Positions 4,284 through 34,324 of a stretch of 34,903 bases of DNA are shown piece by piece. The stretch is from Nitrospirota bacterium (GTDB taxonomy: Bacteria > Nitrospirota > Thermodesulfovibrionia > UBA6902 > DSMQ01), in NCBI GenBank assembly GCA_016207865.1, contig JACQZD010000052.1:1-34903 (forward strand), given 5' to 3'. Below the pieces are notes generated by a model. The model was not told the origin of the DNA and did no database searches. It saw only the letters and a program-made list of their open reading frames with translations. Position 1 is the stretch's first letter. The number at the start of each line of letters is the position of its first letter. The position numbers and the translations under genes were made by a program.

Positions 4284-4405
4284 GTCATTGTCCGGCTTGA
4301 CCGGACAATCCAGTACCTTTTTTATTCCGGTTTCCTGTTTTTGCAGGGACGGCGCCTGCATGCCGGCAGGCAGGTCTGGATGCCCCGATTAAATCGGAGC
4401 ATGAC
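4284..4405. repeat. REP doublet
   Basis: gtcattgtccggcttgaccggacaatccag at 4284-4313 and the inverted ctggatgccccgattaaatcggagcatgac at 4376-4405. The spacer contains a GCCTGC/GCAGGC hairpin. Confidence 0.8.
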
Positions 4406-4424
4406 AAAAAGTGCGGGGTACGTT

Positions 4425-9045: not shown

Positions 9046-10593
9046 ATGAACAAATGGCTTGTTGCATTGACAGTAATGCTTCCGACTCTGATAGAGATTA
9101 TTGACACCTCTGTCGTCAATGTCTCTCTGGACCACATCCGCGGAAGCCTGTCGGCAGGCATTGATGAATCCACGTGGACGATAACATCCTATCTCGTTTC
9201 AAACGCAATCATAATCCCGATGACCGGGTGGCTCAGCAGATTATTCGGAAGAAAGCGCTATCTGATATTTTCCATATCATTATTTACATTAAGCTCCCTG
9301 CTCTGCGGCTTTGCATGGAACCTGCAGAGCCTTGTGCTGTTCAGAATTTTTCAGGGTATCGGAGGCGGCGCGCTTCAGCCCATATCACAGTCTGTCTTAT
9401 TTGAAACGTTTCCCCGGAAACAGCACGGCATGGCAATGGCAATATTCGGCGTCGGCATTATGTTCGGGCCTATTATTGGTCCCTTGCTCGGAGGCTGGAT
9501 AACAGACAACTGGTCGTGGCACTGGATATTCTTTATAAATATTCCGATAGGGATAATCTCCATTCTGCTTGTAATGTTTTTCATCATGGACCCTCCTTAC
9601 ATGAAGCGCATGAAGATGAAGATTGACTACTGGGGGCTTGCGTTTCTCGTACTCGGGCTCGGCTGCCTTCAGATAGTCCTTGACAAAGGAGAGCGTGAAG
9701 ACTGGTTCTCATCAAACTTCATTGTCTGGATGAGCTTAGTCTCGGCAGTCTCTTTGATACTTTTTATAATTACGGAGCTGTTTGCAGAGCATCCTGTCGT
9801 GAACCTGAAGGCCTTTAAAAATCTCACCTTCAGCACAGGGAATATTGTGATGTTTTTTGCGTTTTTCAATCTCTTCGGCAGTATCGTTCTTCTCCCGATA
9901 TTCCTCCAGACGCTTATGGGTTATACATCAACGCTCGCAGGTGTAGTGCTCGGGCCCGGAGGCGTTGCGACACTCATAGCAATGCCGATTGCAGGGAGGC
10001 TCGTGACAAAGATGAATCCAAAGATATTGCTGGGCTTCGTAATACTGGTATCCGCATATTCAACGCATCTCATGTCCCAATTCACCCTCTCGGCGGATTT
10101 CAACACAATAATATGGACCAGGATTGTTCTGGGCATAGGCATGGGATTTCTTTTTATACCGCTTACGACACTGACCATGTCAGGCGTCAAAAAGGAGGAA
10201 ATGGGCAATGCAACTGCTATTTACAACCTTTTAAGAAATCTCGGCGGAAGTTTCGGTGTTGCATTTATCACCACAATGATTGCAAGACGCTCGCAGTTTC
10301 ATCAAAATCATCTTGTAGAACATCTTACGCCGTTTGATGTAAACTATCAGACAATTTTATCGCAGATTTCTCAATTCCTGCATCTCAGGGGGGTTGAAGA
10401 AAGCGGCTCGCAGCATGCGGGTTTGAGCGCCATTTACGGCCAATTATTAAGACAGGCTTCCATGCTGTCCTTTAATGATGCCTTTTATCTCCTAAGCCTG
10501 CTCATGGTCTGCACCCTGCCTCTTTTGCTGTTAATAAGGAGGAGTGCAATAAGAAATGAATCTCCCCGCCGCAGAGACAGCGGGGTATCTTAA
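9046..10593 (+). CDS. MFS drug efflux transporter, DHA2 (EmrB/QacA) family, 14-TMS type
   Basis: 515 aa with motifs LDTSVVNVSL, GWLSRLFGRKR and FRIFQGIGGGAL, and many TM segments. The C-terminal tail SPRRRDSGVS is read from a hairpin repeat. Confidence 0.9.
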   Translation: MNKWLVALTVMLPTLIEIIDTSVVNVSLDHIRGSLSAGIDESTWTITSYLVSNAIIIPMTGWLSRLFGRKRYLIFSISLFTLSSLLCGFAWNLQSLVLFRIFQGIGGGALQPISQSVLFETFPRKQHGMAMAIFGVGIMFGPIIGPLLGGWITDNWSWHWIFFINIPIGIISILLVMFFIMDPPYMKRMKMKIDYWGLAFLVLGLGCLQIVLDKGEREDWFSSNFIVWMSLVSAVSLILFIITELFAEHPVVNLKAFKNLTFSTGNIVMFFAFFNLFGSIVLLPIFLQTLMGYTSTLAGVVLGPGGVATLIAMPIAGRLVTKMNPKILLGFVILVSAYSTHLMSQFTLSADFNTIIWTRIVLGIGMGFLFIPLTTLTMSGVKKEEMGNATAIYNLLRNLGGSFGVAFITTMIARRSQFHQNHLVEHLTPFDVNYQTILSQISQFLHLRGVEESGSQHAGLSAIYGQLLRQASMLSFNDAFYLLSLLMVCTLPLLLLIRRSAIRNESPRRRDSGVS

Positions 10594-10612
10594 AAATGAT
10601 GTGCAAACTATC

Positions 10613-10704
10613 GTCATTCCCTGACTTGATCGGGGAATCCAGACGCCGTTCTCCGATTTAATCAGGGGAACAGAATGGATTGTCCGGTCAAGCCGGACAA
10701 TGAC
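10613..10704. repeat. REP cluster (forward unit, degenerate unit, inverted unit)
   Basis: gtcattccctgacttgatcggggaatccag at 10613-10642, ctccgatttaatcagggga (degenerate), and tggattgtccggtcaagccggacaatgac at 10676-10704. Confidence 0.8.
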
Positions 10705-10719
10705 AAACTTTCAGAAAAA

Positions 10720-11880
10720 ATGACTATATTTTTAATTTTTTACTGCGTATATGCGGCCGGAAATGTTTATGTTTTTTTGAAAGTCAGGCATGTTTTTAGT
10801 CCGGGCCTTTTGGCAAGCATTCTGTTAGGTTTATTCCTGACATTCATGACTTTCTCGCCAATGTTAATACATTTATGTTCTCTCCACTGTCTGCATACAA
10901 TGACAAAAATTTATGCATATCCGGGCTACATGTGGGTTGCAGTCATTGTGTTTTTTGCCTCAGTTGGAATTTTACTGGACCTCTATAGTCTCATCATCAG
11001 AACAGGCGGATTTCTCCTTCAAAACAATTCAATCAGGAAAATCTCAATCTCTCAGCAGACGTCATTTTTTATCACTGTTTTTTTTACAATAGCGCTCACT
11101 GTCTACGGTTATTTTGAGGCGCAGAATTTACAGGTGGAAAAATTAACAATCAGCACCTCAAAGCTTCCTGAAAATGCAGGCAAATTAACCATAGCGCAGA
11201 TATCAGACTTGCATCTTGGAGTCATTATAAGGGAAAAACATCTGGACAAGGTTTTAAAAGTCATTGAAGCGGCAAACCCTGATTTGATAGTCTCAACCGG
11301 GGACCTTCTTAACGGAACGGTGGATAATATTGACTACCTTGCGGGGCACATTAAAAAAATTAACGCACGGTTAGGTAAATTTGCAGTGACCGGCAATCAC
11401 GAATTTTACGGCGGCCTAGATAATGCCGTAAAATTCATGCAGAACTCCGGCTTTACCGTGTTGCGCGGCGAGGGTGTCAGCATACAAAATCTAATTAATA
11501 TCGCTGGCCTTGACGACTCCGCAGTCAAGGACTTTGAACCGGCTGAAAATGTTCCAAAAAAGTCCGTAAGAAAAATCATCTCGGAACTTCCCCGCAATAC
11601 CTTTACAATATTACTTAACCACAGACCTGAAATAGACGGAGACGCACTCGGAACTTTTGACCTCATGCTCTCAGGACATACGCATAAAGGGCAGATATTT
11701 CCCATCCGCATTATTCCCAAACTAATGTTCCCTATAGACTCCGGTTATGCAAAACTGCCCCAGGGTTCTTCCGTCTATGTAAGCCGGGGCGCCGGGACCG
11801 CAGGGCCGCCCGTGCGTTTTCTTGCCCCTCCGGAGATAACGATTATTGAGATTGTCCCTGAAAAGCAAATTCAAAAATAA
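10720..11880 (+). CDS. membrane-anchored metallophosphoesterase (calcineurin-like)
   Basis: Start trimmed to the ATG at 10720, because the upstream part of ORF 10675 is REP sequence. Multi-TM N-terminus, then motifs QISDLHLG, GDLLNG, GNHEF and SGHTHKGQ. Confidence 0.75.
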   Translation: MTIFLIFYCVYAAGNVYVFLKVRHVFSPGLLASILLGLFLTFMTFSPMLIHLCSLHCLHTMTKIYAYPGYMWVAVIVFFASVGILLDLYSLIIRTGGFLLQNNSIRKISISQQTSFFITVFFTIALTVYGYFEAQNLQVEKLTISTSKLPENAGKLTIAQISDLHLGVIIREKHLDKVLKVIEAANPDLIVSTGDLLNGTVDNIDYLAGHIKKINARLGKFAVTGNHEFYGGLDNAVKFMQNSGFTVLRGEGVSIQNLINIAGLDDSAVKDFEPAENVPKKSVRKIISELPRNTFTILLNHRPEIDGDALGTFDLMLSGHTHKGQIFPIRIIPKLMFPIDSGYAKLPQGSSVYVSRGAGTAGPPVRFLAPPEITIIEIVPEKQIQK

Positions 11881-13206: not shown

Positions 13207-14289
13207 ATGGTAACTTCACCTGACCACATAAAAACAATCAAGCCTTACGTACCGGGCAAGCCCGTTGAGGAGCTTGAGCGAGAGCTCGGCATCAAGGGCG
13301 CTATAAAACTTGCATCCAATGAAAGCTCTCTGGGCCCCTCCCCGTCTGTGCTCAGAGCGCTGCGTCATGCGCTTAAGGGAATCAACAGATATCCTGACGG
13401 AAGCTGTTATTACCTTAAAACCTCCCTCGCAGAAAAACTCGGCGTATCTCCCGAAGAAATCATGCTCGGCAACGGCTCCAATGAACTGATTGAGCTTGCG
13501 GTGCGGACATTTTTTAACGCAGGGGATGAGGCGATAATGGCCCATCCGTCTTTTGTCGTCTACTCAATGATAACCCAGGCGGCAGGCGGAAAAAATGTAG
13601 TGGTCCCCCTCAAAGAGTGGCGTCATGACCTTGAGGCCATGGCATCGCGGATAACAGAAAAAACAAAGATTATTTTTATTGCAAACCCGAACAACCCGAC
13701 AGGCACAATCAATACAAAAGCCGAGATGGACGCCTTTATGAATAAGGTGCCCGAAGGCGTGCTTATTGTTGTTGACGAGGCTTATTATGAATATGTTACA
13801 TCTCCTGAATACGCTGACAGCATGAAGCATTTCAGGCAGGGGCGGGATATCTTGATACTCAGGACTTTTTCAAAGATTTACGGGCTTGCAGGGCTGAGAA
13901 TCGGCTACGGCATTGCCAAGCCGTCATTAATTACAGAGCTGAACAAAATCCGCCAGCCGTTTAACGTCAATTCAATGGCTCAGAAGGCGGCGCTTGCATC
14001 ACTTGAAGATGAAAAACATATTTCAAAGGCAAAAAAAATTAATGAAAAAGGGAAAAAATATCTTTACAGGGAATTAAAGGCCTTGCAGTTTGATTTTGTA
14101 CCTACCGAAACAAACTTTATATATGTTATTTTAAAAGATGACAGCGCCGGTCAATTATACGAAAAGCTTTTACGCAAGGGCATTATTGTCAGGCCCATGG
14201 GACCAAGGGAAATCAGGGTGACAATAGGACTGCCGGAGGAGAATGAGAAATTCATAGAAACACTTAAGAAAATTCAAAATGCAGAATGA
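13207..14289 (+). CDS. hisC: histidinol-phosphate / aromatic aminotransferase (class II PLP)
   Basis: 360 aa with motifs KLASNES, YPD, NPNNPTG and TFSKIYGLAGLRIGY (PLP lysine). Its position between pheA and aroF suggests an aromatic aminotransferase role. Confidence 0.85.
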   Translation: MVTSPDHIKTIKPYVPGKPVEELERELGIKGAIKLASNESSLGPSPSVLRALRHALKGINRYPDGSCYYLKTSLAEKLGVSPEEIMLGNGSNELIELAVRTFFNAGDEAIMAHPSFVVYSMITQAAGGKNVVVPLKEWRHDLEAMASRITEKTKIIFIANPNNPTGTINTKAEMDAFMNKVPEGVLIVVDEAYYEYVTSPEYADSMKHFRQGRDILILRTFSKIYGLAGLRIGYGIAKPSLITELNKIRQPFNVNSMAQKAALASLEDEKHISKAKKINEKGKKYLYRELKALQFDFVPTETNFIYVILKDDSAGQLYEKLLRKGIIVRPMGPREIRVTIGLPEENEKFIETLKKIQNAE

Positions 14290-14325
14290 AAAATTGAAAA
14301 TTATGGAACTCATTAATTTTTCATT
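14285..14325 (+). terminator. AT-rich hairpin at the hisC 3' end (weak terminator or repeat)
   Basis: AATGAAAAATT (14285-14295) pairs with AATTTTTCATT (14315-14325), followed by TTTAAT. The stem contains almost no G:C pairs, so this is weak. Confidence 0.25.
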
Positions 14326-14363
14326 TTTAATTTATAACTTTTAATTTATAAATGGGGGAGACA

Positions 14364-19597: not shown

Positions 19598-19709
19598 GTC
19601 ATTCCCGCGCAGGCGGGAATCCAGACGGCGTCTCCATAAAACTTATCCCGGTAGGCTTTAAAGGAGATAGAACCTTTTAATGCTGGATTCCTGCTTTCGC
19701 AGGAATGAC
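19598..19709. repeat. REP doublet
   Basis: gtcattcccgcgcaggcgggaatccag at 19598-19624 and ctggattcctgctttcgcaggaatgac at 19683-19709. Confidence 0.85.
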
Positions 19710-19773
19710 AAAACAAAAAATTCCCATACCCTGAAAATTGCAGGGTATGCATAATAAACTCCCTTATTAATAA

Positions 19774-24114: not shown

Positions 24115-24240
24115 GTCATTCCTGCGTAGGCAGGAATCCAGAGATTTATTATTCACTAACGACTATTCACTTGGGTGTGTTGTCATTCCCGCTTGTCGGG
24201 AATCCCTCTTGAAGAGAGATTCTGGACAAGCCAGAATGAC
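24115..24240. repeat. REP cluster (two forward units and one inverted unit)
   Basis: gtcattcctgcgtaggcaggaatccag at 24115-24141, gtcattcccgcttgtcgggaatcc at 24182-24205, and attctggacaagccagaatgac at 24219-24240. Flanked by TTCACT-type repeats. Confidence 0.8.
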
Positions 24241-24593: not shown

Positions 24594-26225
24594 GTGCCGG
24601 GTAAAGTTTACATAGTAGGAGCCGGCCCCGGTGACATCGGGCTCTTTACGGTAAAAGGGGTTAAATGCCTTCAAAAGGCAGAGGTAGTCGTCTATGACTT
24701 TCACCTCAATGCCCAGATACTGAATTACATAAACCACAATGCCGAGTTTATCTATGCTGGAAAACGCGGCGGACAGCACACCCTCACTCAGGAGCAGATA
24801 AATCAGGTACTTGTTGATAAGGCAAAACAGGGCAAGGTCATCTGCCGTTTAAAAGGGGGCGACCCGTTTGTATTCGGCAGAGGCGGCGAAGAGGCGGAGA
24901 CGCTCTCAAAAAACAATATTGAATTTGAAATTGTTCCCGGTGTAAGCTCTGCAGTTGCCGCGCCTGCTTATGCAGGAATTCCCCTGACCCACCGTCTTTA
25001 TTCATCATCTTTTGCAGTGGTCCCAGGCTATGAAGACGCATCAAAAGAGGAAAGTTCAATCAACTGGGCAAATCATGCAACAGGCGTAGGAACCATAGTC
25101 TTTCAAAAAAAAAAAAAAAATATCAGCACCGCATGCCGGAGGCTTATTGAAAACGGCAGAAACCCTGATACGCCGGTTGCCGTCATAAGATGGGGCACAA
25201 GACCCGAGCAGACGACCATTACAAGCAATCTAAAAAATATAGCCCGGCTAATCAAAGCAGAAGATATAAAACCTCCGGCAGTAATGGTCGTAGGCGATGT
25301 TGTAAAGCTTAGAGACAAGCTTAAGTGGTATGAAAAAAAACCGATGTTCGGGCATAGAGTGCTCGTCACAAGAGAACACTCAGGCGGTTTTGAGCAGTTG
25401 GAAGAATTAGGCGCTGAAATAATGGAGTTTCCCACTGTTGAAATCGTGCCGCCTAAAGACTGGGGTAAACTTGACAAGGCTGTTGCAAAGATAGACTCAT
25501 ACAACTGGTTAATATTCACAAGCGCAAACGCGGTGAAATTTTTATTCCGGCGACTTTTTGAACTGAATAAAGACATCCGCGATTTGAAGGGGTTGAAAAT
25601 CTGCGCCATAGGCGCAAAAACAGCAGAGGCGATTAATATGTTCGGGATACGGGTGGATTTAGTGCCTGAGGAGTTCAATGCGGAAGGACTTGTAGAAACC
25701 TTCAAGAAAGAACTTGAGAAGATAAGAAGTTCAGAAGATAAGAAAAAAGTAAAGGGGTTAACTCTCTCAACTTCTCAGCCTCTCAACTTCTCAACTTCTC
25801 AATTACCAAACTCCGAACTTTTAAAGGGAATGCGCTTTTTATTGCCGCGGGCAGAGGTTGCGCGCGAAATCTTTCCTGAAAAGGTTAGGGAGCTTGGCGG
25901 TGAGATAGATGTTGTTACTGCATACAGGGCAGTAAAGCCTGAAGTGCACGGGAAAAGGCTGAAGAGATTTTTAAAAGAAGGGAAAATCTCAATAGCGACA
26001 TTTACCAGCGCAGGGACTTTTAAAAATTTCGTGGAAATAATGGGCGAGGATGCTTACGGGCTTTTAAAAGGCATCGCAATCGCAGTGATTGGTCCCGTAA
26101 CTGCAAAGGCGGTTCAAAAAGCCGGCTTGATGGTAGACATCATGCCAAAAGAGGCAACCATTGAGGCAATGGTCAAGGCGATAATTGAATGGGCCGGGAA
26201 TGCCCCCTTAAAAAAGGGGGGCTGA
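24594..26225 (+). CDS. cobA: fused uroporphyrinogen-III C-methyltransferase / uroporphyrinogen-III synthase
   Basis: GTG start. The N-terminal SUMT domain has VYIVGAGPGD, RLKGGDPFVFGRGGEE and VPGVSS. The C-terminal HemD-like half has VLVTRE..., IFTSANAV, LLPRAEVAR and TFTSAG. It contains a 16-A homopolymer, an in-frame low-complexity insert, and a repeat-derived C-terminus. Confidence 0.85.
   Translation: MPGKVYIVGAGPGDIGLFTVKGVKCLQKAEVVVYDFHLNAQILNYINHNAEFIYAGKRGGQHTLTQEQINQVLVDKAKQGKVICRLKGGDPFVFGRGGEEAETLSKNNIEFEIVPGVSSAVAAPAYAGIPLTHRLYSSSFAVVPGYEDASKEESSINWANHATGVGTIVFQKKKKNISTACRRLIENGRNPDTPVAVIRWGTRPEQTTITSNLKNIARLIKAEDIKPPAVMVVGDVVKLRDKLKWYEKKPMFGHRVLVTREHSGGFEQLEELGAEIMEFPTVEIVPPKDWGKLDKAVAKIDSYNWLIFTSANAVKFLFRRLFELNKDIRDLKGLKICAIGAKTAEAINMFGIRVDLVPEEFNAEGLVETFKKELEKIRSSEDKKKVKGLTLSTSQPLNFSTSQLPNSELLKGMRFLLPRAEVAREIFPEKVRELGGEIDVVTAYRAVKPEVHGKRLKRFLKEGKISIATFTSAGTFKNFVEIMGEDAYGLLKGIAIAVIGPVTAKAVQKAGLMVDIMPKEATIEAMVKAIIEWAGNAPLKKGG
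25105..25120 (+). repeat. A16 homopolymer inside the cobA coding sequence
   Basis: Counted directly: c at 25104, a at 25105-25120, t at 25121. Translated as QKKKKN. Confidence 0.95.
25762..25803 (+). repeat. CTCAACTTCTCA-type short tandem repeat embedded in-frame in the HemD half
   Basis: ctctctcaacttctcagcctctcaacttctcaacttctcaatt, translated as LSTSQPLNFSTSQL. Confidence 0.85.
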
Positions 26226-26238
26226 GGGGTAGTTGCAC

Positions 26239-26267
26239 TTGACTTAGTCAAGGACTTAGTCTATTAT
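26239..26267 (+). promoter_or_regulatory. near-consensus sigma70 promoter with two palindromic operator-like sites for phd/vapC
   Basis: TTGACT (26239-26244), 17-nt spacer, TATTAT (26262-26267). GACTTAGTC occurs twice (26241-26249 and 26253-26261), each a 4+1+4 palindrome. AGGAGG sits at 26273-26278 and the ATG at 26285. Confidence 0.6.
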
Positions 26268-26284
26268 AAGTCAGGAGGCATTGA

Positions 26285-26518
26285 ATGACTACGGTAAATG
26301 TGCATGAGGCAAAAACTCATTTTTCCAGACTCTTAAACCGGGTCGGCAGCGGTGAAGAAATCATAATCGCAAAGGCAGGGAGGCCCGTAGCCCGCATGCT
26401 TCCCATTATTAAAAGGATTAAGAAACGCGTATCAGGAACAGCCAAAGGGCAGATTATTTTAAAAGACAATTTTGATAAGCCCCTGCCAGGTCATATTTTG
26501 AAAGAATTTGAGCAATGA
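26285..26518 (+). CDS. type II antitoxin, Phd/YefM family
   Basis: 77 aa, MTTVNVHEAKTHFSRLLNRV..GEEIIIAKAGRPVA. Overlaps the downstream PIN gene by ATGA. Confidence 0.85.
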   Translation: MTTVNVHEAKTHFSRLLNRVGSGEEIIIAKAGRPVARMLPIIKRIKKRVSGTAKGQIILKDNFDKPLPGHILKEFEQ

Positions 26519-26907
26519 AAGCTTTGCTGGACACCCACGCGTTTCTCTGGTGGATTCTGGATATTCCTAAATTACCCCCTCAAGTCCGCAGTATAATCAG
26601 TGATGGCAATAATGAATTATTTCTAAGCGCGGCAAGCTGCTGGGAAATTGCAATTAAGGCTCAAATCAACAGGATAAAACTGCCCGCAAAGCCTGACATC
26701 TTTATATCTGAACAATTAGCCATGAATGCTGTTCAGGCCTTGCCGATTCAAATAAGCCATGCCCTTCATGTCTTTAACCTTCCTCTTTTGCACAGCGACC
26801 CTTTTGACCGCATGATTATTGCCCAGGCGCAAATGGAGGATTTGCCGGTTTTAACTTCAGACCCCTTGATTGCCAAGTATAAAGTTAAAGTTATCTGGAA
26901 GGGGTAA
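26515..26907 (+). CDS. vapC: type II toxin, VapC-like PIN-domain ribonuclease
   Basis: 130 aa. LLDTHAFLWW (first acidic residue), SAASCWEIAIK, and DPFDRMIIAQA...LTSD, typical of PIN toxins paired with Phd-type antitoxins. Confidence 0.85.
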   Translation: MKALLDTHAFLWWILDIPKLPPQVRSIISDGNNELFLSAASCWEIAIKAQINRIKLPAKPDIFISEQLAMNAVQALPIQISHALHVFNLPLLHSDPFDRMIIAQAQMEDLPVLTSDPLIAKYKVKVIWKG

Positions 26908-27042
26908 TTGTGAAAATTACCTTTATCAGAACTGGCTTACGGTGTATTATCTACAAAAATTCCTAATACATTCCCCCTTAACAAAGGGGGCGCAGGGGGT
27001 TGTTATTTCGTCATTGACTTGAAAATAGGAATTGTTGTAACC

Positions 27043-27195
27043 GTCATTGTACGGCTTGACCGGACAATCCAGACTTTAGTTGTTTTCCTGGATACCCCGA
27101 TTAAATCGGAGTATGACATTAGAGAGAAATTTTCATACTCTTTTATGACCCCGAGACTTCGGGATCATGTCATTCCCTTGAAAACGGGAATCCAG
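27043..27195. repeat. REP cluster inside module A (four hairpin units)
   Basis: Units at 27043-27072 (forward), 27088-27117 (inverted), 27145-27168 (atgaccccgagacttcgggatcat) and 27169-27195 (forward). Confidence 0.8.
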
Positions 27196-27225
27196 AGTTT
27201 TCTGATGTTATTAAAATAAATATTT

Positions 27226-27357
27226 ATGACAAACATCTCTGCTAAAAAAATCACTTTCCTTTTCCTTGTCATGTTCGTGCTGGGGCTTGCGGGAACTGCC
27301 TTTGCCCAGTCAGAGGACGAGGCGCTGAAGCGCTATCCGCAGAACTGCTGGATATAA
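27226..27357 (+). pseudogene. truncated 5' fragment of a TPR-CHAT paralogue (signal peptide plus about 15 codons)
   Basis: Reads MTNISAKKITFLFLVMFVLGLAGTAFAQSEDEALKRYPQNCWI*. The intact gene reads MRNVSVRKIAFLLLFPLFVIGLAGTAFAQSEDEAVKLYQQGQ at 30008. Confidence 0.75.
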
Positions 27358-27367
27358 TAATGGTTTA

Positions 27368-27376
27368 TGATATAAT
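27368..27376 (+). promoter_or_regulatory. extended -10 promoter element (TGnTATAAT) in the shared junction upstream of MNT/HEPN pair 1
   Basis: TGATATAAT at 27368-27376. An identical element sits at 28545-28553 upstream of pair 2. Confidence 0.45.
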
Positions 27377-27438
27377 GAAACTAAAAACAAGCTTATTTTT
27401 TTGGATACAATTTCGAAAAGGAAGTTTGAAAAAAATAT

Positions 27439-27768
27439 ATGATAAATAAAGAACTCATTAAAAAAGCTGTTGCAAAGATATCTGCTCAGTTCAATCCTCA
27501 GCGTATTATCCTTTTTGGCTCATATGCGAGGGGCACCGCTGATGATAAAAGTGATATTGACCTTTTAGTGATATGTCCTCTAAGGAAAAGGCGACGGACC
27601 TTAATGCTTGAAATGGATAGAGTGCTGAAGGGTTTAAAATTGGCAAGGGATATTGTTGTGCTAAGTCCGGGGGAATTTGAGATTGAAAAAGAAATCTCAG
27701 GCACAATAGCCCGTTATGCATGGAAGGAAGGAAAGCCCCTCTATGAACATAAACAAAAAAGTAAATGA
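27439..27768 (+). CDS. nucleotidyltransferase (MNT, Pol-beta fold) antitoxin of a HEPN/MNT module
   Basis: 109 aa with the GS-x(n)-DxD motif LFGSYARGTADDKSDIDLLVI. Overlaps the downstream HEPN gene. Confidence 0.85.
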   Translation: MINKELIKKAVAKISAQFNPQRIILFGSYARGTADDKSDIDLLVICPLRKRRRTLMLEMDRVLKGLKLARDIVVLSPGEFEIEKEISGTIARYAWKEGKPLYEHKQKSK

Positions 27769-28156
27769 AATTGCAAGAGAATGGATTGGACATGCCGAAG
27801 AAGATTTGCGGCTGGCAAAACATGCATTCAAGCTCTCAAGTTCGTGCCCATATAAACTGGTTGCTTTTCATGCACAGCAGTGTGCTGAGAAATATTTAAA
27901 GGCTTTTCTGACAATTAAAAATGTGGATTTCCCTTATACGCATAACATATCCCTGTTGCTGGAGTTATGTTCTTCCTATGCCGACTGGGCAAAAGATTTG
28001 CACGAAGCTGAGGATTTAACCCCCTATGCAATTACCGCCCGTTATCCCGGAAAAGATAAAGTAACTAAAAAAGACGCCGTTAAAGCTGTAGAGACTGCCA
28101 ATAAAGTTCGTAAGATAATCAGAAAGGTTTTAAAACAACACAGTATAAAACCATAG
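27743..28156 (+). CDS. HEPN-domain protein (toxin partner of MNT)
   Basis: Start set at the ATG at 27743. AEEDLRLAKHAF, FHAQQCAEKYLKAFL, THNISLLLELC and ARYPG match the HEPN family that is typically paired with MNT. Confidence 0.8.
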   Translation: MNINKKVNEIAREWIGHAEEDLRLAKHAFKLSSSCPYKLVAFHAQQCAEKYLKAFLTIKNVDFPYTHNISLLLELCSSYADWAKDLHEAEDLTPYAITARYPGKDKVTKKDAVKAVETANKVRKIIRKVLKQHSIKP

Positions 28157-28333
28157 AACTTCTGCAATGGAAATAGCAACTTATGTCATCCGGTTTATTT
28201 CTCTCCTTAATGTGTGAAAATTACCTTGATAGAGGGCGCCCTGCGGTGTATTATCTATTCAAAAATTCCCCCTTAACAAAGGGGGACTGAGGGGGTTGTT
28301 ATAAAGGATTGTTATAAAAAAACCTATAAATCC

Positions 28334-28363
28334 GTCATTCCCCGATTTAATCGGGGAATCCAG
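28334..28363 (+). repeat. single REP unit inside module B
   Basis: gtcattccccgatttaatcggggaatccag. Confidence 0.8.
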
Positions 28364-28398
28364 TCCTTTCCAATGTTATATAATGAAAAATAAATTCC

Positions 28399-28534
28399 AT
28401 GACAACCATCTCCATTAAAAAAATCACTTTCCTTTTCCTCCTTGCCCTGTTCGTGTTAGGGTATGGCGGGAACTGCCTTTGCCCAGTCAGAGGATGAGAC
28501 ACTGAAGCGCTATCCGCAGAACTGCTGGATATAA
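28399..28534 (+). pseudogene. truncated and frameshifted 5' fragment of a TPR-CHAT paralogue
   Basis: Begins MTTISIKKITFLFLLALFVLG. A 1-nt length difference (GGGTATGGCGGG here, GGGGCTTGCGGG in copy A) shifts the frame, with a stop at 28495-28497. Nucleotide homology to copy A continues to 28534. Confidence 0.75.
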
Positions 28535-28544
28535 TAATGGTTTA

Positions 28545-28553
28545 TGATATAAT
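28545..28553 (+). promoter_or_regulatory. extended -10 promoter element (TGnTATAAT) upstream of MNT/HEPN pair 2
   Basis: TGATATAAT, in the same junction sequence as 27368-27376. Confidence 0.45.
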
Positions 28554-28600
28554 GAAACTAAAAACAAGCTTACTTTTTTGGATACAATAGTGATTTAAAA

Positions 28601-28978
28601 ATGCAAACTCAAAAAGAAACCAAAAAAACTACCGTAGCCTTAAAACTCAAAAAAAATATCAAACGGATTCTCCTAAATATAGCAGGGAAAATCAGGGATA
28701 ATTATCATCCCGAAAAGATAATCCTTTTTGGCTCATACGCCTATGGAACACCTACAGAAGACAGCGACATTGATATTGTCGTTATTAAAAAAGAAAATCG
28801 AGACATCTCTCCAATTGACAGAAGCATAGAAATCAGGAGAATACTTGCTGACGAAAACAGGCAGTGGGCTATAACGCCAATTGTTTATACACCTAAAGAA
28901 TTGGAATACCAGCTCTCAATCGGTGATGACTTTGTCGCTGAAATACTTGAAAAAGGGAAAGTCCTTTATGCCAGATAG
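28601..28978 (+). CDS. nucleotidyltransferase (MNT) antitoxin of a second HEPN/MNT module
   Basis: 125 aa with LFGSYAYGTPTEDSDIDIVVI. Shares only family-level similarity with the MNT at 27439. Confidence 0.85.
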   Translation: MQTQKETKKTTVALKLKKNIKRILLNIAGKIRDNYHPEKIILFGSYAYGTPTEDSDIDIVVIKKENRDISPIDRSIEIRRILADENRQWAITPIVYTPKELEYQLSIGDDFVAEILEKGKVLYAR

Positions 28979-29363
28979 AACAAAGGCGGCTCAGGAGTGG
29001 TTTGAAAAGGGCAGGCATGATATTGAAGGGGCCAGACTGCTTTTTGAAAGAGAACATTTTACTGATACTATTGCAATGCTGATACAACAAGCATTGGAAA
29101 AATATCTAAAAGGCTATCTCATTCTGCATGGGTGGAAATTGAAGAAAATTCATGATTTGATACCCCTTCTTGCAGAGGCCACTACACATAATTCAACCTT
29201 CCAAACATTTGAAGAAGATTGCAGACGCATAAGTGAATATTATTCCCACGCCAGATACCCCGGCAGGATGCCGATAGATTATCCAAGAGAAGAAATCAGA
29301 AAATCACTTGCCGCAGCGGATGAATTGATTAAGCTTCTGGAAATATTAAAGAAAAGGAATTGA
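28968..29363 (+). CDS. HEPN-domain protein (second module)
   Basis: The ATG at 28968 overlaps the MNT stop by 11 nt. Motifs: AQEWFEKGRHDIEGARLLFE, IQQALEKYLKGYL, KIHDLIPLL, HARYPG. Confidence 0.8.
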   Translation: MPDRTKAAQEWFEKGRHDIEGARLLFEREHFTDTIAMLIQQALEKYLKGYLILHGWKLKKIHDLIPLLAEATTHNSTFQTFEEDCRRISEYYSHARYPGRMPIDYPREEIRKSLAAADELIKLLEILKKRN

Positions 29364-29839
29364 AACGAGAGTTATCAAAAGCAAACGAACGTGCAGCTGA
29401 GGCTAACCAAAAAGCTGCTGTGTTGAATAAGCGAGCTGCTACACTTGAAAAAGAGGCAGAACAATCTCGGTTAGAAACAGCACGAATAAAACTACAAATT
29501 TCTTGGCGAGAGATTACGCCAGCACAACGCCATAAAATTATCGGTGTGCTTAAGTCGCATCCTCTTTCAATAGATGTAGTCTGCGTTGGCAGTGACCCAG
29601 AAGCTTGCGAGTATGCCCAGCAATTAGTAGCCGTATTGAAGGCTTCAGGATCAAACCCGAAGTTCGTGAAACTCCTTGCGGCATCAAACAATCCATCTGG
29701 ACTTTTGCTCGGGGGTACAAGTGGCCCTGATATGGAACTTCTGGGAACCGCCTTTCGCACGGCAGGTATCCATTTTTCTGCGGGCAGAAATATTCCTAAT
29801 TTGGAAATTCGGATAGGGACAAAGCCACACGCACAGTAA
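29360..29839 (+). CDS. hypothetical coiled-coil protein, possibly a 5'-truncated remnant
   Basis: 159-aa ORF with only a TTG start, which overlaps the HEPN stop. A coiled coil (ANERAAEANQKAAVLNKRAATLEKEAEQSRLETARIKLQI) is followed by a globular part. I see no SD and no N-terminal anchor. Codon flavour looks different from its neighbours. Confidence 0.4.
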   Translation: MKRELSKANERAAEANQKAAVLNKRAATLEKEAEQSRLETARIKLQISWREITPAQRHKIIGVLKSHPLSIDVVCVGSDPEACEYAQQLVAVLKASGSNPKFVKLLAASNNPSGLLLGGTSGPDMELLGTAFRTAGIHFSAGRNIPNLEIRIGTKPHAQ

Positions 29840-30007
29840 TCATCAAAGAAATAACGCCATGACAAAGTTATACACAATAAGGCGTTCAAGGAGACAGGAT
29901 TAAATGCTTTTTGTTTTCGTTCAATCACCTGTGCCCCTGCGCCTTAACTTTAGCAGTCCCCCTTAACGAAGGCGGATTCAGTGGGATGTTGTAACAGAAT
30001 AAATCTT

Positions 30008-32272
30008 ATGAGAAATGTCTCTGTTAGAAAAATAGCTTTCCTTTTACTCTTTCCCCTGTTTGTGATAGGGCTTGCGGGAACTGCCTTTGCCCAGTCAGAG
30101 GATGAGGCGGTAAAACTATATCAGCAGGGACAAGAAGCGCAAAAATACGGCAGATATCAGGAGGCGCTGTCTTATTTTGAGAAGTCACTAGAAATTAATA
30201 AAAAACTTGGTCATCTTCAAGGTATCTCTGCCAATTTGAATTATATCGGTGCTGTTTACGATTCACTGGGGCAGTATGAAAAGGCACTGACTTATTATGA
30301 AGAATCTTTAAAGATATCTAAAGAACTTAAAATCCCACAATCTGTAGCCGGAAGCCTCAACAACATCGGTGGTGTTTATCTTTATGAGAAAAGATATAAA
30401 GAAGCTGAACAGAAATTCCTTCAAACAAAAGGCGAGCCGGGTCTTGTAGCGGTTTTTTTAGCCACAGGAAGACATAATGAGGCATTAAAACTCCTTAAAA
30501 ATATGCCTCCAGAATGGAATAGCGATAACCCGTATCGCATCCAGTTTTACACCCAATACGGTTTTGCCTTGAAAGGAGTTGGACAACTCAAAGAATCATC
30601 CAGTAAATTTTATAAAGCAGTCTCCATCGCTGAGGAAATGAGGCAGAAGGTTAAGGGAGAAAAGACAGGATTTTTGGGTGGAGGTTACTTAGGCGGGCGT
30701 ATCCGAGCATACAAAGGTCTTGTGGCATCTTTATCTGAACGTGCAATCAACGGTGAAACAAAAGACAAGGAATTTATCTCTTTTGGAAAAGATTTCCCTT
30801 CCAATGCCTTCTACTTCGCTGAATCCACAAAGGCGCGAACACTCCTTGAGGCAATGGTAGAATCGGCAAGGAAAAGCCAGAAGGTTGAGATATCAGAAGA
30901 TTTGAGACAAAGAGAACAATCCCTCATTAATCAGCTTACTGCAATAGAAAATCTATGGGATGATGCTTATAAAAAAGGAGAGGAAGTCTTAAAAAGACTT
31001 CAGGAAAGAAAAGAAGGGCTTACAGTAGAACTTAATACTCTGATAAAAGAGCTAAGACAAAAATATCCCAGATATGCCGCCCTTAATTATCCCAAACCCA
31101 TTCCTGCCGAGGAATTGCCTTTGAAAGACAATGAAGTCCTCATAGAGTATGCAATTGGCGATGATGCAAGTTATGTTTTTGTTGTAAAAAAAGGCGGGGT
31201 AAAAAATCTCTTTAAAATCCCTATCGGCAAGGAGGCGCTTGAGGAAAAGGTAAAGTCATTCATGGAGCCGATGAATACAAAAAATTATGAGGGGTTTTCT
31301 GTAAAAGAGGCAAAAGGACTTTATGATCTTTTGCTTGCGGATGCGTTAAAGGAGGTTCACCCCTCCCCCACCCCCCTCCCGCAAGGGGAGGGGGCAAATG
31401 TAATCATTGTCCCTGACGGAATTTTAGGACTGCTGCCGTTTGAGGCATTGATAGTAAAAGAAGGCAAGGATTACAAGGACAGCCTTTATGCCGGTGACAA
31501 ATACAATATCAGCTATTACCAATCAGCCACAGTGCTTGCGCTTCAGAGAGGTTTGAAAGAAAACAAACCGGAGAAAATGCTTTTTGCGCTCGGCAATCCG
31601 ATTTATTCAACAGACGACCTGCGTTACATTGCATGGAAAGAGAAAAAAGAAAACGTGCTTATTGCCAGCTTGAACAATAAATATTCTTTCAGAGGGCTTG
31701 CGATAAAACCTAAATGGGGCAAGACCACAGAGGCAGATGCAGGCAGTAAGATAGAATTCCCTCCCCTGCCTGAGACAGAGATTGAGGTAAAAGAGATTGC
31801 AAAGATAATGAATGTAAAGACTCAGCCTCCTGATGTTTTACTTTCCATGACGGCAAATGAGACAGAGTTGAGAAAGACAGGTCTTGAGAAATATAAATAT
31901 GTCCACTTTGCCACTCATGCCTCTTTGCCCGGGATGATTCAGGGCATTAATGAGCCGTTCTTGCTTTTGGGACAGGTGGAGAATAATGAAAAGGATGATG
32001 GGTTTCTGACAATAAATGAGGTTTTGGATTTAAGGCTTAATGCCGATGCAGTGGTCTTATCCGCCTGTGTTACAGGTGTGGGTAAAGAAGTTGAAGGCGA
32101 AGGCGTTGCAAACTTTGCAAGGGCATTTCAGCACGCAGGCGCAAGGTCCATTGTTGTCAGCCTCTGGGAAGTGGCGTCAGACCCTGCTGTAGAATATATG
32201 AAGGCGTTTTATGGTCATTTAAAGGCAGGCAAGAGCCGAGGAGAGGCATTGCGGCTTGCACGAAACGAATAA
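30008..32272 (+). CDS. secreted TPR-repeat CHAT-domain (caspase-like) protease; the frame breaks about 20 codons before the family-typical C-terminus, which continues to 32331 in another frame
   Basis: Sec-type signal MRNVSVRKIAFLLLFPLFVIGLAGTAFA/QSEDE. TPR repeats are present (YQEALSYFEKSLEI..., YEKALTYYEESLKI...). The CHAT domain has His (YVHFATHASL) and Cys (VVLSACVTGVG) dyad contexts and VVSLWEV. The frame ends at ...EALRLARNE*. The frame ending at 32331 encodes IKTKYPNPFYWAVFILHGEG*, the usual CHAT C-terminal motif. Confidence 0.85.
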   Translation: MRNVSVRKIAFLLLFPLFVIGLAGTAFAQSEDEAVKLYQQGQEAQKYGRYQEALSYFEKSLEINKKLGHLQGISANLNYIGAVYDSLGQYEKALTYYEESLKISKELKIPQSVAGSLNNIGGVYLYEKRYKEAEQKFLQTKGEPGLVAVFLATGRHNEALKLLKNMPPEWNSDNPYRIQFYTQYGFALKGVGQLKESSSKFYKAVSIAEEMRQKVKGEKTGFLGGGYLGGRIRAYKGLVASLSERAINGETKDKEFISFGKDFPSNAFYFAESTKARTLLEAMVESARKSQKVEISEDLRQREQSLINQLTAIENLWDDAYKKGEEVLKRLQERKEGLTVELNTLIKELRQKYPRYAALNYPKPIPAEELPLKDNEVLIEYAIGDDASYVFVVKKGGVKNLFKIPIGKEALEEKVKSFMEPMNTKNYEGFSVKEAKGLYDLLLADALKEVHPSPTPLPQGEGANVIIVPDGILGLLPFEALIVKEGKDYKDSLYAGDKYNISYYQSATVLALQRGLKENKPEKMLFALGNPIYSTDDLRYIAWKEKKENVLIASLNNKYSFRGLAIKPKWGKTTEADAGSKIEFPPLPETEIEVKEIAKIMNVKTQPPDVLLSMTANETELRKTGLEKYKYVHFATHASLPGMIQGINEPFLLLGQVENNEKDDGFLTINEVLDLRLNADAVVLSACVTGVGKEVEGEGVANFARAFQHAGARSIVVSLWEVASDPAVEYMKAFYGHLKAGKSRGEALRLARNE
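31358..31396 (+). repeat. REP-like hairpin (CCCCTCCC-GCAA-GGGGAGGGG family) embedded in-frame in the CHAT gene
   Basis: caccCCTCCCCCACCCCCCTCCCGCAAGGGGAGGGGGc, translated HPSPTPLPQGEGA. Same family as the intergenic 7886-7919 (ctcaccctacccctctcccgcaaggggagaggg). Confidence 0.8.
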
Positions 32273-32383
32273 AGACAAAATACCCGAATCCATTTTATTG
32301 GGCGGTTTTTATACTGCATGGAGAAGGGTGAGCATTAAAAATTGTATAATAATCGTCATTGACCCGAAAATACCTTTAAACCT

Positions 32384-32460
32384 GTCATTCCGGCAGTTCA
32401 CAAGCCGGAATCCAGTTCCTTGTGAAAAGATTCTGGATTCCGCACCAAGTGCGGAATGAC
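32384..32460. repeat. REP doublet between the CHAT and DUF4384 genes
   Basis: gtcattccggcagttcacaagccggaatccag at 32384-32415 and ctggattccgcaccaagtgcggaatgac at 32433-32460. Confidence 0.85.
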
Positions 32461-32478
32461 AAATATTGGGGAGGACTC

Positions 32479-33336
32479 ATGAAAAAAATACTCATTCCAT
32501 TAATATTAACTCTTTTATTAACCCCTGCCCTCTACGCCGCGCAGTCCACCATCACTGAATCCGAGGGCTATGCCTGTATGGGCGAGGACAAGTCGCGAAA
32601 GCAAACCGAGCAGACGGCAATGGCTGATGCAAAGAGGAATGCAGTTGAATATGCCGCAACTTATATTAAGAGTGAAACACAGGTCAAAGATTTTGAGCTT
32701 CAAAAGGATTTAATTGAGGCGTATTCAAGGGCGTCTGTAAAAATAATTCAGGAGATTAAGAGGGAATGGTATAAAGACGCCTCTGTAGGGGATTGTTTTA
32801 AGATTAAAATTAAGGCAGAGGTTATTCCTGATGAAAAGGCCATGGAAAAGGTTGCCAAAAATGTACAATCTGCCGATGACCCGTCTGCGCCGTTAAGCAT
32901 TCAGCTTTGGACCGACAAAAAGGAATATAAAAAAGGTGATATGGTAAAGGTCTATGTCAAAGGCAATAAGCCTTTTTATGCCCGTGTATTGTATAAAGAT
33001 GCAGGAGGTGAATTACTTCAGCTCCTGCCGAATCCATACAGAAAGGATAATTATTTCAACGGCGGGGTGATTTATGAAATTCCTTCGGGAAATGACAAGT
33101 TTGACCTTGAGGTAAGTTCTCCGTTTGGTGAGGAAAATGTGGTAATCTATGCAAGCACGTCTCCTTTGGGCGAGATAAATCTCAAATCAGAGGGCGGGGT
33201 TTATCAGATAAAGACAACGGCATCGGATGTGGGAGACAAGACCAGGGGGATTACATTTAAAGAAAAGACCGGGGATAAAGCAACACAGGCTTCTGAATTT
33301 TTTGAGGAAAAGGTGGTTGTGAGAACAGAGAAGTAG
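32479..33336 (+). CDS. secreted protein with an LPP20-like N-terminal domain and a DUF4384-like C-terminal domain
   Basis: GGGGAGG precedes the ATG at 32479. Signal MKKILIPLILTLLLTPALYA/AQ. The N-terminal part (SEGYACMGEDKSRKQTEQTAMADAKRNAVEYAATYI) resembles LPP20-type lipoproteins. The C-terminal part (LSIQLWTDKKEYKKGDMVKVYVKGNKPFYARVLY.DAGGELLQLLPN...) matches the DUF4384 pattern often linked to caspase or CHAT proteins. This is assigned from memory of the family. Confidence 0.7.
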   Translation: MKKILIPLILTLLLTPALYAAQSTITESEGYACMGEDKSRKQTEQTAMADAKRNAVEYAATYIKSETQVKDFELQKDLIEAYSRASVKIIQEIKREWYKDASVGDCFKIKIKAEVIPDEKAMEKVAKNVQSADDPSAPLSIQLWTDKKEYKKGDMVKVYVKGNKPFYARVLYKDAGGELLQLLPNPYRKDNYFNGGVIYEIPSGNDKFDLEVSSPFGEENVVIYASTSPLGEINLKSEGGVYQIKTTASDVGDKTRGITFKEKTGDKATQASEFFEEKVVVRTEK

Positions 33337-33583: not shown

Positions 33584-34324
33584 ATGAAACCATCAAACGA
33601 CAACTGGATTTACGGCGTTAACCCCGTGCTTGAGGCATTAAAAGCCGGCGGCAGGATTAAATCCATCCGCATATCATCAGGCAGGCACAAGACCGTTCCT
33701 GAAATAATGCAGGCGTCGGAAAAAGCCGGAATCCCTGTAACGATTGAAACTGAGGATTTTTTTAATAAGACATTCCCAAAGGGGCATCAGGGGGTTGCTG
33801 CAAGGATTTCGCAAAAAGGATATGTTGAGCTTGACGAGTTGTTAAAGATACCTTCAGAGAGAAACGAGCCTGCATTTTTTTTAATCCTGGACTGCATAGA
33901 AGACCCGCAAAACTTAGGCGCAATATTAAGGACCGCCGAAACTGCCGGGGTTCACGGTGTTATAATCCAATCACACAGGGCAGCAGGGTTTAGCCCTGCT
34001 GTTTACAAATCATCCGCCGGCGCAGTAGAATACCTGCCGGTAGCTCAGGTATCCAATATCAAACATGCTATAGACCTCCTGAAAAAAACAGGGGTCTGGA
34101 TATACGGAGCTGACATGCAGGCTAAAGAAACACTATGGGATGCTGATATCAGGGGACCTGCTGCAATAGTAATGGGTTCTGAAGGCTCAGGCCTAAGAAA
34201 AACCGTCAGGGAGCACTGTGATTATCTCCTTAGAATCCCCCTCAAGGGAAGGGTTTCCTCGTTAAATGTCTCTGTTGCCGCAGCATTAATTGTCTTTGAA
34301 GCATTAAGGCAACGCACAAGGTAG
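33584..34324 (+). CDS. rlmB: 23S rRNA (guanosine-2'-O-)-methyltransferase, SpoU/TrmH family
   Basis: 246 aa. IYGVNPVLEAL, HQGV, LDCIEDPQNLGAILRTAE, MGSEGSGLR and SLNVSVAA are SPOUT class motifs. Confidence 0.88.
   Translation: MKPSNDNWIYGVNPVLEALKAGGRIKSIRISSGRHKTVPEIMQASEKAGIPVTIETEDFFNKTFPKGHQGVAARISQKGYVELDELLKIPSERNEPAFFLILDCIEDPQNLGAILRTAETAGVHGVIIQSHRAAGFSPAVYKSSAGAVEYLPVAQVSNIKHAIDLLKKTGVWIYGADMQAKETLWDADIRGPAAIVMGSEGSGLRKTVREHCDYLLRIPLKGRVSSLNVSVAAALIVFEALRQRTR

Follow-up and report, generated by a model that had tools for sequence, protein, structure and literature searches.

The stretch of DNA analysed here (the window) is the whole of a 34,903-nt contig from a metagenome-assembled 'Nitrospirae bacterium'; it is chromosomal, and between cobA-hemD and a DUF4384 gene it carries an island of toxin-antitoxin (TA) pairs in which the 5' end of a secreted TPR-CHAT gene recurs. 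In order, the island comprises a Phd/PIN pair, leader module A (26909-27411), the gene pair MNT/HEPN-A, leader module B (28213-28588), the gene pair MNT/HEPN-B, an orphan open reading frame (ORF159) and the TPR-CHAT gene, and the DUF4384 gene follows. The two modules are collinear copies, and non-functional duplicates, of the TPR-CHAT promoter, 5' untranslated region (UTR) and first 39 codons (the codons are referred to as stubs A and B), and each is joined to its MNT/HEPN pair through a near-identical 69-nt sequence, which we named junction J. We propose, with a probability of about 0.55, that this is a recombination-scarred, hypervariable TA island at the promoter-proximal part of the secreted TPR-CHAT/DUF4384 pair, where leader-stub units were duplicated by homologous recombination and cargo was replaced behind a retained promoter. 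The coordinates of the features are collected in Table 1.

Both modules open with TGTGAAAATTACCTT, at 26909 and 28213, 1304 nt apart; the sequence recurs nowhere else in the window, even with up to 2 mismatches allowed (0.13 expected). Identity between the modules is 0.68 in the promoter, 0.85 in the hairpin repeat, 0.73 in the 5' part of the stub and about 0.9 in its 3' part; it reaches 68/69 positions in J, and there is none beyond. The segments 27282-27411 and 28459-28588 are 95% identical over 130 nt. Stub A, stub B and the start of the CHAT gene at 30008 all contain GGGAACTGCCTTTGCCCAGTCAGAGGA. Stub A is still readable as part of a 43-codon ORF (27226-27357) that runs on into J; stub B carries indels of +3 nt (common to the CHAT gene copy) and +1 nt (the frameshift), and reads as a 32-aa ORF (28399-28497). 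In both copies the CHAT homology stops at a CAG (27342 and 28519), and the breakpoint reads CAG/AACTGCTGG. J starts with AACTGCTGGATATAATAATGGTTTATGATATAATGAAAC, ends at GGATACAAT, occurs in the window in these two copies only and contains in both of them a promoter-like site, TGGATA-16-TGnTATAAT. The copies differ by one T-to-C substitution and are equal in length (TTA followed by seven T in A, TTAC followed by six T in B). A preliminary description of this DNA is borne out as to the positions and common start of the modules, the decayed CHAT 5' ends, the perfect extended -10 element in the junction and the much stronger conservation of the leader relative to its cargo (the MNT proteins of A and B are 33% identical and the HEPN proteins 24%). 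The near-identity of the J copies that it reported also stands, with the single substitution, but the one-T length difference that it added does not exist.

Relatives of the locus were obtained by exact-protein look-ups and are referred to as L001 (GCA_016212185.1), L002 (another metagenome-assembled genome, MAG) and L003 (a short Logan contig); the MAGs concerned are the window's own assembly, GCA_016208945.1 and GCA_016212185.1. L002 has the order VapBC, A, TA-A, B, TA-B, ORF159, CHAT, as in the window, at 99.5% identity over 5.2 kb. L001 is syntenic, and its flanking genes are approximately 90-94% identical to those of the window at the nucleotide level. L001 and L003 both span leader, stub, J, MNT/HEPN-A, spacer and leader, and L003 breaks exactly at this next leader. 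The MNT-A protein is identical in L001, L002 and L003, and L001 preserves, as one block, the 3' end of HEPN-A, the spacer behind it and the beginning of the next leader. Between cobA-hemD and DUF4384, L001 contains three leader-stub copies with different cut points and different genes behind them (Table 1). The third is followed by a PEGA-caspase gene (Peptidase_C14; L001 11047-12516), which lies in the place of CHAT, before the same DUF4384 partner, with about 60 CHAT codons left; one caspase-fold protease is swapped here for another at a conserved locus. Across the two genomes, at least four cargos have the CHAT 5' end as their retained left border, with three breakpoints. Moreover, about 50 nt of the HEPN-A 3' end together with the spacer are found 5' of L001 leader 1 (L001 8773-8900, 84.7% identical to window 28082-28303), and therefore a second TA-A unit was once there and is now lost. 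L001 also has a separate Polbeta/HepT-like pair at 13494-14357. A 20-mer from the stub core matched 12 loci in the JGI metagenomes, among which L005 alone is related; its single match in genome representatives, in a Bacteroidota MAG, was taken as chance.

Comparison of the stub copies points to a single origin of the stub-J fusion, which was later copied. In the 3' part of the stub, identity is 0.92-0.94 among the J-linked copies (window A, window B and L001 copy 2), 0.87-0.89 among the gene-linked copies (window CHAT, L001 copy 3 and L005 CHAT), which form a group of their own, and 0.83-0.87 between the two sets. The J-linked stubs have the same breakpoint and several derived substitutions in common (...CTGAAGCGCTATCCGCAG versus ...GTAAAACTATATCAGCAG), which argues for one fusion and not for repeated insertion in separate paralogs; the suggestion that related elements had been inserted repeatedly at the same point in paralogous CHAT genes is accordingly disfavoured. 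In the 5' part of the stub, the copies group by genome (0.84-0.91 within L001), and so do the upstream leader parts, by which concerted evolution is indicated. L001 copy 2 is a mosaic: upstream of the ATG it is B-like, including the same single miniature inverted-repeat transposable element (MITE)-like palindrome (87% identical to B, 9611-9973), and downstream of the ATG it is A-like (96.9% identical to A, 9803-10828). In J, the two copies of the window differ from each other at 1 of 69 positions, versus 3 of 69 for window copy A and its L001 ortholog. L002 lacks window positions 27133-27299 (167 nt, comprising one MITE-like palindrome and most of stub A; L002 2037-2045 corresponds to window 27132/27300), and what remains of its stub A carries B-type single-nucleotide polymorphisms (SNPs); either a real deletion and gene conversion between strains or mixing in short-read assembly would account for this. 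Altogether, the evidence indicates that leader copies still exchange sequence by unequal crossing-over and gene conversion, and the gene conversion of the leader proposed earlier finds support in the genome-wise clustering, the mosaic L001 copy 2 and the B-type SNPs of L002 copy A.

The upstream part of the modules was identified through the TGTGAAAATTACC motif. A -35/-10 pair follows it immediately in the window, in L001 (3 copies), in L005 and in L033 (JGI Ga0484001_0001095), a distant relative found via the DUF4384 protein. In L033, TGTGAAAATTACCTTTACC-17-TGATATAAT is immediately preceded by a DUF433/PIN_10 TA pair and immediately followed by a secreted WD40 gene. L005 has the motif behind what is left of the PIN toxin that the window also carries, and in the window itself the PIN stop codon and module A lie one base apart. 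The TGTGAAAATTACC motif is therefore a conserved promoter-upstream motif of the secreted CHAT/caspase/WD40 gene family and not the end of an element, and the module represents the native promoter, 5' UTR and signal-peptide region of that gene family. A hairpin repeat (TTCCCCCTT-loop-AAGGGGG, then GGGGGTTGTTAT) occurs once before each island unit, at 26202-26239 (before VapB), 26971-27008, 28267-28304 and 29957-29994 (before CHAT), with only a partial match, at 33777, elsewhere in the 35-kb window. It folds at -12 to -14 kcal/mol, no better than shuffled sequences, and could be a repetitive extragenic palindromic (REP)-like element, a minus-strand terminator or a recombination hot spot. The repeat is also found in L001 (8949-9049 and 9667-9704) and in L027 (2069-2171, three tandem copies after hemD). 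L027, which was reached by a look-up with the HU protein, has wholly different island content, with the hairpin repeats followed by a PDZ-WD40 gene. Module A is longer than module B because it contains three MITE-like palindromes (GTCATTCC..GGAATCCAG) and B contains one. No RNA family was detected in the leaders or J with Rfam, either at the gathering threshold or at E<=1.

The surviving CHAT gene has only the last part of this leader, from the hairpin repeat (29957) to the ATG; its leader has no TGTGAAAATTACC promoter part, and a promoter scan gave no promoter-like site there. As the preliminary description held, the TA promoters stand upstream of the surviving CHAT gene. The same description called that gene intact; its start at 30008 is correct, but a 1-nt deletion in an A run near 32270 (AACGAA-TAAAG versus AACGAAATAAAG in L005) leads to a stop at 32272 and removes the last 20 codons (IKTKYPNPFYWAVFILHGEG), which are still readable in the +2 frame and are conserved in L005. 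The CHAT gene of L002 carries the same frameshift, which could be real pseudogenisation or an assembly error common to both.

The cargos are ordinary modules of their kind. Pairs of MNT and HEPN genes are abundant and highly mobile in environmental bacteria, and in both pairs of the window a small NTP_transf_2/Polbeta gene overlaps a downstream HEPN gene (by 26 nt in A and 11 nt in B), with order and size typical of the family. MNT-A and MNT-B match PF01909 (2.4e-12 and 1.2e-11) and PF18765 (7e-11 and 1e-11), and HEPN-A and HEPN-B match PF05168 (7.5e-26 and 1.3e-23). Compared with type VII HepT/MntA systems, the HEPN partners belong to PF05168 and not to HepT/DUF86 (PF01934), neither HEPN matches an NCBIfam model, and the MNT proteins score 39.1 and 38.0 bits against the NCBIfam MntA equivalog NF047752, whose cut-off is 60. 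They are thus MNT plus PF05168-HEPN modules, predicted to be TA systems, which fall short of the HepT/MntA (type VII) equivalog criteria. By eye, HEPN-B contains a K-x4-H sequence (KLKKIH), and HEPN-A contains FPYTH without R or K at -5 to -7 (compare the Rx4-6H RNase motif of HEPN proteins). At the nucleotide level, the two cargos have a single 23-nt match (E 4e-5), which by its position we read as lying in the IILFGSYA nucleotidyltransferase motif. The closest relatives of MNT-B (62-79% identical at the protein level; L017-L024, L037 and L038) are found in his operons and at other unrelated loci, without J or stubs; exact-protein look-ups gave no record for MNT-B or for rlmB. Two of these relatives, L023 and L037, have the same type of MITE-like repeat 5' of their MNT genes.

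We propose the following history. One ancestral illegitimate join would have fused codon 39 of the CHAT gene to J, the 69-nt promoter-bearing leader of an MNT/HEPN pair. The leader-stub-J unit would then have been multiplied by homologous recombination between leader copies, either by unequal crossing-over or by looping-out and Campbell-type re-integration of circles, both of which would leave a copy of leader or stub on each side of the cargo. Finally, the cargo behind the retained promoter would have been replaced in one copy (MNT/HEPN-A versus MNT/HEPN-B plus ORF159), and ongoing gene conversion would hold the 3' end of the stub and J near-identical within a genome while the cargos are unrelated. 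The left copy retains the promoter part, whereas the right-hand copy before CHAT starts at the hairpin repeat, a geometry to be expected from a single crossover with a circle that had no promoter part. On its right side the B unit ends abruptly, where ORF159, of higher GC content, overlaps the HEPN-B stop. As predicted from the sequence, two promoters probably drive each TA pair, namely the captured CHAT-type one and that in J; the CHAT-DUF4384 pair has lost its own promoter part and would probably be transcribed by read-through from the TA units. A terminator scan of the plus strand gave a single weak terminator-like hit, at 28236-28249, inside leader B. The stubs themselves are decaying, stub B being frameshifted and stub A partly deleted in L002. 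In this account the anatomy, the single origin of the stub-J join, the mosaic copies, the several breakpoints and cargos and the lack of mobility genes are read from the sequences, and the recombination route and everything on transcription are proposals.

Several points weigh against this history. Just three related assemblies have stubs, two of which are near-identical, and the direction and order of events given above are tentative. Neither a donor with J and MNT/HEPN-B nor a cargo-free J was found, and the route by which one J came to precede two unrelated cargos is one that we infer. The counts behind the concerted evolution of J are tiny (1 versus 3 differences in 69 nt), and the B-type SNPs and 167-nt deletion in L002 copy A possibly reflect short-read assembly mixing. 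In L023 and L037, a promoter-like string, T(T)ATGATATAAT, lies upstream of the MNT-B relative, so part of J may be a promoter typical of the family rather than a sequence inherited by duplication only. It is also possible that copies of J or of the leader are present at other loci of these MAGs.

An explanation that differs from the proposed history merely in the order of events invokes gene conversion only. The two MNT/HEPN pairs would have been inserted independently at different points behind two CHAT-type leaders, and a later tract running from the stub into the TA-A leader would have overwritten B up to GGATACAAT, making the identical breakpoint secondarily. The A/B identity indeed climbs towards J and ends abruptly (0.68, 0.73, about 0.9, 0.99, nothing), which is the profile of a tract with one sharp end, and the leaders are homogenised within genomes. 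Additionally, the 3' end of J can pair with the A-specific 5' UTR, including its Shine-Dalgarno-like run AAGGAAG, in copy A alone (-15 kcal/mol, z = -3.1, versus z = +0.7 in B), hinting that J is native to TA-A. However, a tract needs homology at both ends, and to the right of J there is none between A and B. In the L001 ortholog, two uncompensated substitutions break the pairing of this copy A hairpin (as judged by eye); the structure is thus not conserved, and we do not rely on it. We regard this order of events as unlikely.

J could also be the conserved left end, or the attachment site, of small MNT/HEPN elements that insert at the CAG in the signal-peptide region of CHAT-family genes, which would make a new system of site-specific mobile cassettes. 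The same breakpoint and the same 69-nt end before two unrelated cargos, the promoter that each cargo has of its own in J, and the appearance of the island in both genomes as an array of leaders and cargos agree with this view. However, the derived substitutions common to the J-linked stubs indicate one event and not several, the remainder of an interrupted CHAT gene is never seen after a cargo, and the two units end differently on the right (a 56-nt spacer comes after HEPN-A, and the HEPN-B stop overlaps the orphan ORF). The other L001 cargos are joined at other breakpoints and without J, and the closest MNT-B relatives lie at unrelated loci without it. A 24-mer from J gave 0 matches in 185,579 GTDB species-representative genomes and 0 in viral contigs, and stub A with unit A (27226-28212) gave no match among plasmids; within the window and these collections J was not seen to recur at unrelated loci. 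No recombinase was found among the ten ORFs of 26285-33336 scanned against Pfam, none is on record for the called genes of L001, and there is no integrase or transposase ORF between cobA-hemD and rlmB. Judged only by inspection of their translations, the large ORFs in the rest of the window appear to encode efflux, aromatic amino-acid biosynthesis and further housekeeping proteins. An inverted-repeat scan of 26150-30150 gave weak AT-rich pairs and the CCCCCTT/AAGGGGG hairpin only, none of which bracket J to HEPN, and no direct terminal repeats were seen. We therefore consider site-specific cassettes improbable. The cassette-like exchange of cargo behind a fixed leader, which the preliminary description had listed, holds as a pattern (DUF5647 and caspase genes behind the other L001 stubs), but no dedicated mechanism is indicated, there being no recombinase and no terminal repeats, and J being absent from the other collections searched.

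The same features separate the island from known systems. Integron and super-integron arrays resemble it in being co-directional arrays of small unrelated cargos, TA pairs among them, with a recurring sequence in between and a fixed promoter-bearing platform. Here, however, neither an IntI-type integrase nor attC-like imperfect palindromes with GTTRRRY cores are present, what recurs is 380-500 nt of host gene promoter and 5' end, and the cargos have their own promoter; the resemblance is superficial, as every defining feature tested fails, and the integron reading was rejected. A transposon, insertion sequence or MITE carrying the TA pair was likewise rejected: there are no terminal repeats, target-site duplication or transposase, and the right ends of the units are unrelated. 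Genomic islands bordered by duplicated 3' ends of tRNA or tmRNA genes are similar in that a host gene fragment is repeated at the borders of accessory DNA between conserved genes (here cobA-hemD and DUF4384/rlmB); theirs are short 3'-end att sites made by the island integrase, whereas here a 5' end with its promoter, hundreds of nt long, is present in at least 3 copies with different truncation points and no integrase. The closest match is with Campbell-type integration, unequal crossing-over and homology-facilitated illegitimate recombination, which leave a homologous segment on both sides of an insert, or one homologous and one illegitimate joint. The leader/stub copies flanking the cargos, the right copy without the promoter part and the abrupt HEPN-B/ORF159 end correspond to this, but these are general mechanisms and not a system, and neither a circular intermediate nor a donor sequence was seen here. 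A literature search on DUF4384/CHAT/CHASE2 and on homology-facilitated illegitimate recombination with TA pairs gave nothing specific.

A more speculative extension, to which we assign a low probability, is that leader, stub and J act as an integrase-free cassette platform, with RecA-looped circles of leader/stub plus a J-headed MNT/HEPN pair re-integrating at the 5' ends of CHAT, caspase or WD40 genes. If so, the circles would move within or between strains, the arrays would take over the host promoter and couple transcription of the protease operon to the TA pairs, and the platform would be a homology-driven analogue of integrons specific to the bacterial caspase-like gene family. Misjoining of short reads across the repeated leader is very improbable: although the source is a MAG contig, 130-nt repeats at 95% identity and dispersed MITE-like repeats are hard to assemble, and L002 copy A (deletion, mixed SNPs) and the end of L003 at a leader are of the kind to be expected, the same unit order is present in the second MAG assembly L002, the path through unit A is independently confirmed by L001 and L003, and A and B differ enough in indels and MITE content to be assembled separately.

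Table 1. Features of the island in the window and leader-stub copies in L001.
Feature	Position	Strand	Description
Phd/YefM-type antitoxin	26285-26518	+	Pfam PF02604 (8e-12); first TA pair of the island
PIN-domain toxin	26515-26907	+	Pfam PF01850 (6.5e-14); first TA pair of the island
Module A, promoter part	26909-26970	+	TGTGAAAATTACC motif, then TTATCA-16-TATTAT (26923-26950)
Leader A, hairpin repeat	26971-27008	+	CCCCCTT-loop-AAGGGGG, then GGGGGTTGTTAT
Leader A, three MITE-like palindromes	27043-27072, 27088-27118, 27169-27206	+
Stub A	27226-27342	+	TPR-CHAT codons 1-39, with a Sec-type signal peptide ending AFA/Q and the start of the first TPR
Junction J, copy A	27343-27411	+	69 nt, without CHAT homology; TGGATA-16-TGATATAAT at 27349-27376
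MNT-A	27439-27768	+	109 aa; Pfam; overlaps HEPN-A
HEPN-A	27743-28156	+	137 aa; Pfam
Spacer, HEPN-A to leader B	28157-28212	+
Module B, leader	28213-28398	+	TGTGAAAATTACC motif, TTGATA-17-TATTAT (28226-28254), hairpin repeat (28267-28304), one MITE-like palindrome (28334-28363)
Stub B	28399-28519	+	Same 39-codon CHAT 5' end, frameshifted
Junction J, copy B	28520-28588	+	68/69 positions as in copy A; promoter-like site 28526-28553
MNT-B	28601-28978	+	125 aa; Pfam
HEPN-B	28968-29363	+	131 aa; Pfam
ORF159 (orphan)	29360-29839	+	159 aa; overlaps the HEPN-B stop; TTG start
Partial leader of surviving CHAT	29957-30007	+	Degenerate hairpin repeat (29957-29994) and ribosome-binding site region; from alignment
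Secreted TPR-CHAT gene	30008-32333	+	ORF stop 32272; Pfam CHAT PF12770 (1.3e-50), TPR_12 (2e-21)
DUF4384 lipoprotein-like gene	32479-33336	+	Pfam; pairs with the CHAT or caspase gene and forms the conserved right-hand anchor of the island
MITE-like copies in the window	1300, 4284-4406 (4284, 4376), 7752, 10613-10705, 19598-19710, 24115-24152, 27043-27206, 28334-28363, 32340-32440
L001 copy 1			Cut right after AFAQ (about codon 27), then DUF5647 gene
L001 copy 2			Cut at codon 39, then J and MNT/HEPN-A (identical MNT-A protein)
L001 copy 3			Cut at about codon 60, within the first TPR (79-aa ORF), then PEGA-caspase C14 gene

The gene order of the window, read from translations, is cmk, ispH, rpsA, sppA, HU, cobA-hemD, the island, the DUF4384 gene, rlmB, tRNA-Thr and tRNA-Tyr, and every gene from cobA-hemD to DUF4384 is on the plus strand and co-directional. 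The CHAT protein has an N-terminal TPR array and a Sec signal peptide (...GLAGTAFA/QSEDE, judged by inspection). ORF159 could not be assigned to a family, with one weak Pfam match below the gathering threshold and nothing in NCBIfam, PADLOC or PDB sequence searches. Its GC content (0.45-0.48) is above that of its neighbours, its N-terminal part looks coiled-coil by eye, and the counterpart annotated in L002 has 138 aa only; it may be an N-terminally truncated foreign gene fragment, either brought in together with the TA-B segment or cut by it.

The partners of the CHAT gene were compared in other genomes. DUF4384 follows CHAT or caspase in L001, L005, L035 and L036. In the more distant relatives L035 and L036 the order is FecR, TPR-CHAT, DUF4384, CHASE2-cyclase, and in L033 it is FecR-like, DUF4384, WD40-caspase, CHASE2-cyclase; L005 has TA pairs between FecR and CHAT and no stubs, and L033 has interspersed TA pairs as well. 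The FecR, CHAT or caspase, DUF4384 and CHASE2 set has the look of a conserved module of secreted caspase-like proteins for signalling or conflict, of which the literature searched gave no description. DUF4384 proteins at 65-75% identity occur across MAGs labelled Nitrospirota, Thermodesulfovibrionales, Deltaproteobacteria and Nitrospinota.

Elsewhere in the window, palindromic MITE/REP-like families of 28-38 nt (GTCATTCC...GGAATCCAG and complement) fill many intergenic regions and yield spurious small ORFs. Copies also lie just downstream of an AcrB-like RND transporter ORF (1359-4016) that ends at 885 aa. This is less than the typical length of AcrB-like family members, and the ORF may be truncated.

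It is important to mention that the locus is a neat example and by itself neither a new mechanism nor a new kind of system. In practical terms it is useful for the annotation of MAGs, in which stub ORFs and repeated leaders fragment assemblies and yield spurious small genes, and it is a candidate locus for studies of promoter capture. For the gene family, it presents a secreted caspase-like protease operon (CHAT or caspase with DUF4384) that has been repeatedly invaded or swapped at its 5' end and that may now depend on TA promoters for its transcription. If the history proposed here is true, the island would be a clear example of TA island growth in which a host promoter and 5' gene end, duplicated by homologous recombination, came to serve one unrelated cargo after another as left border.

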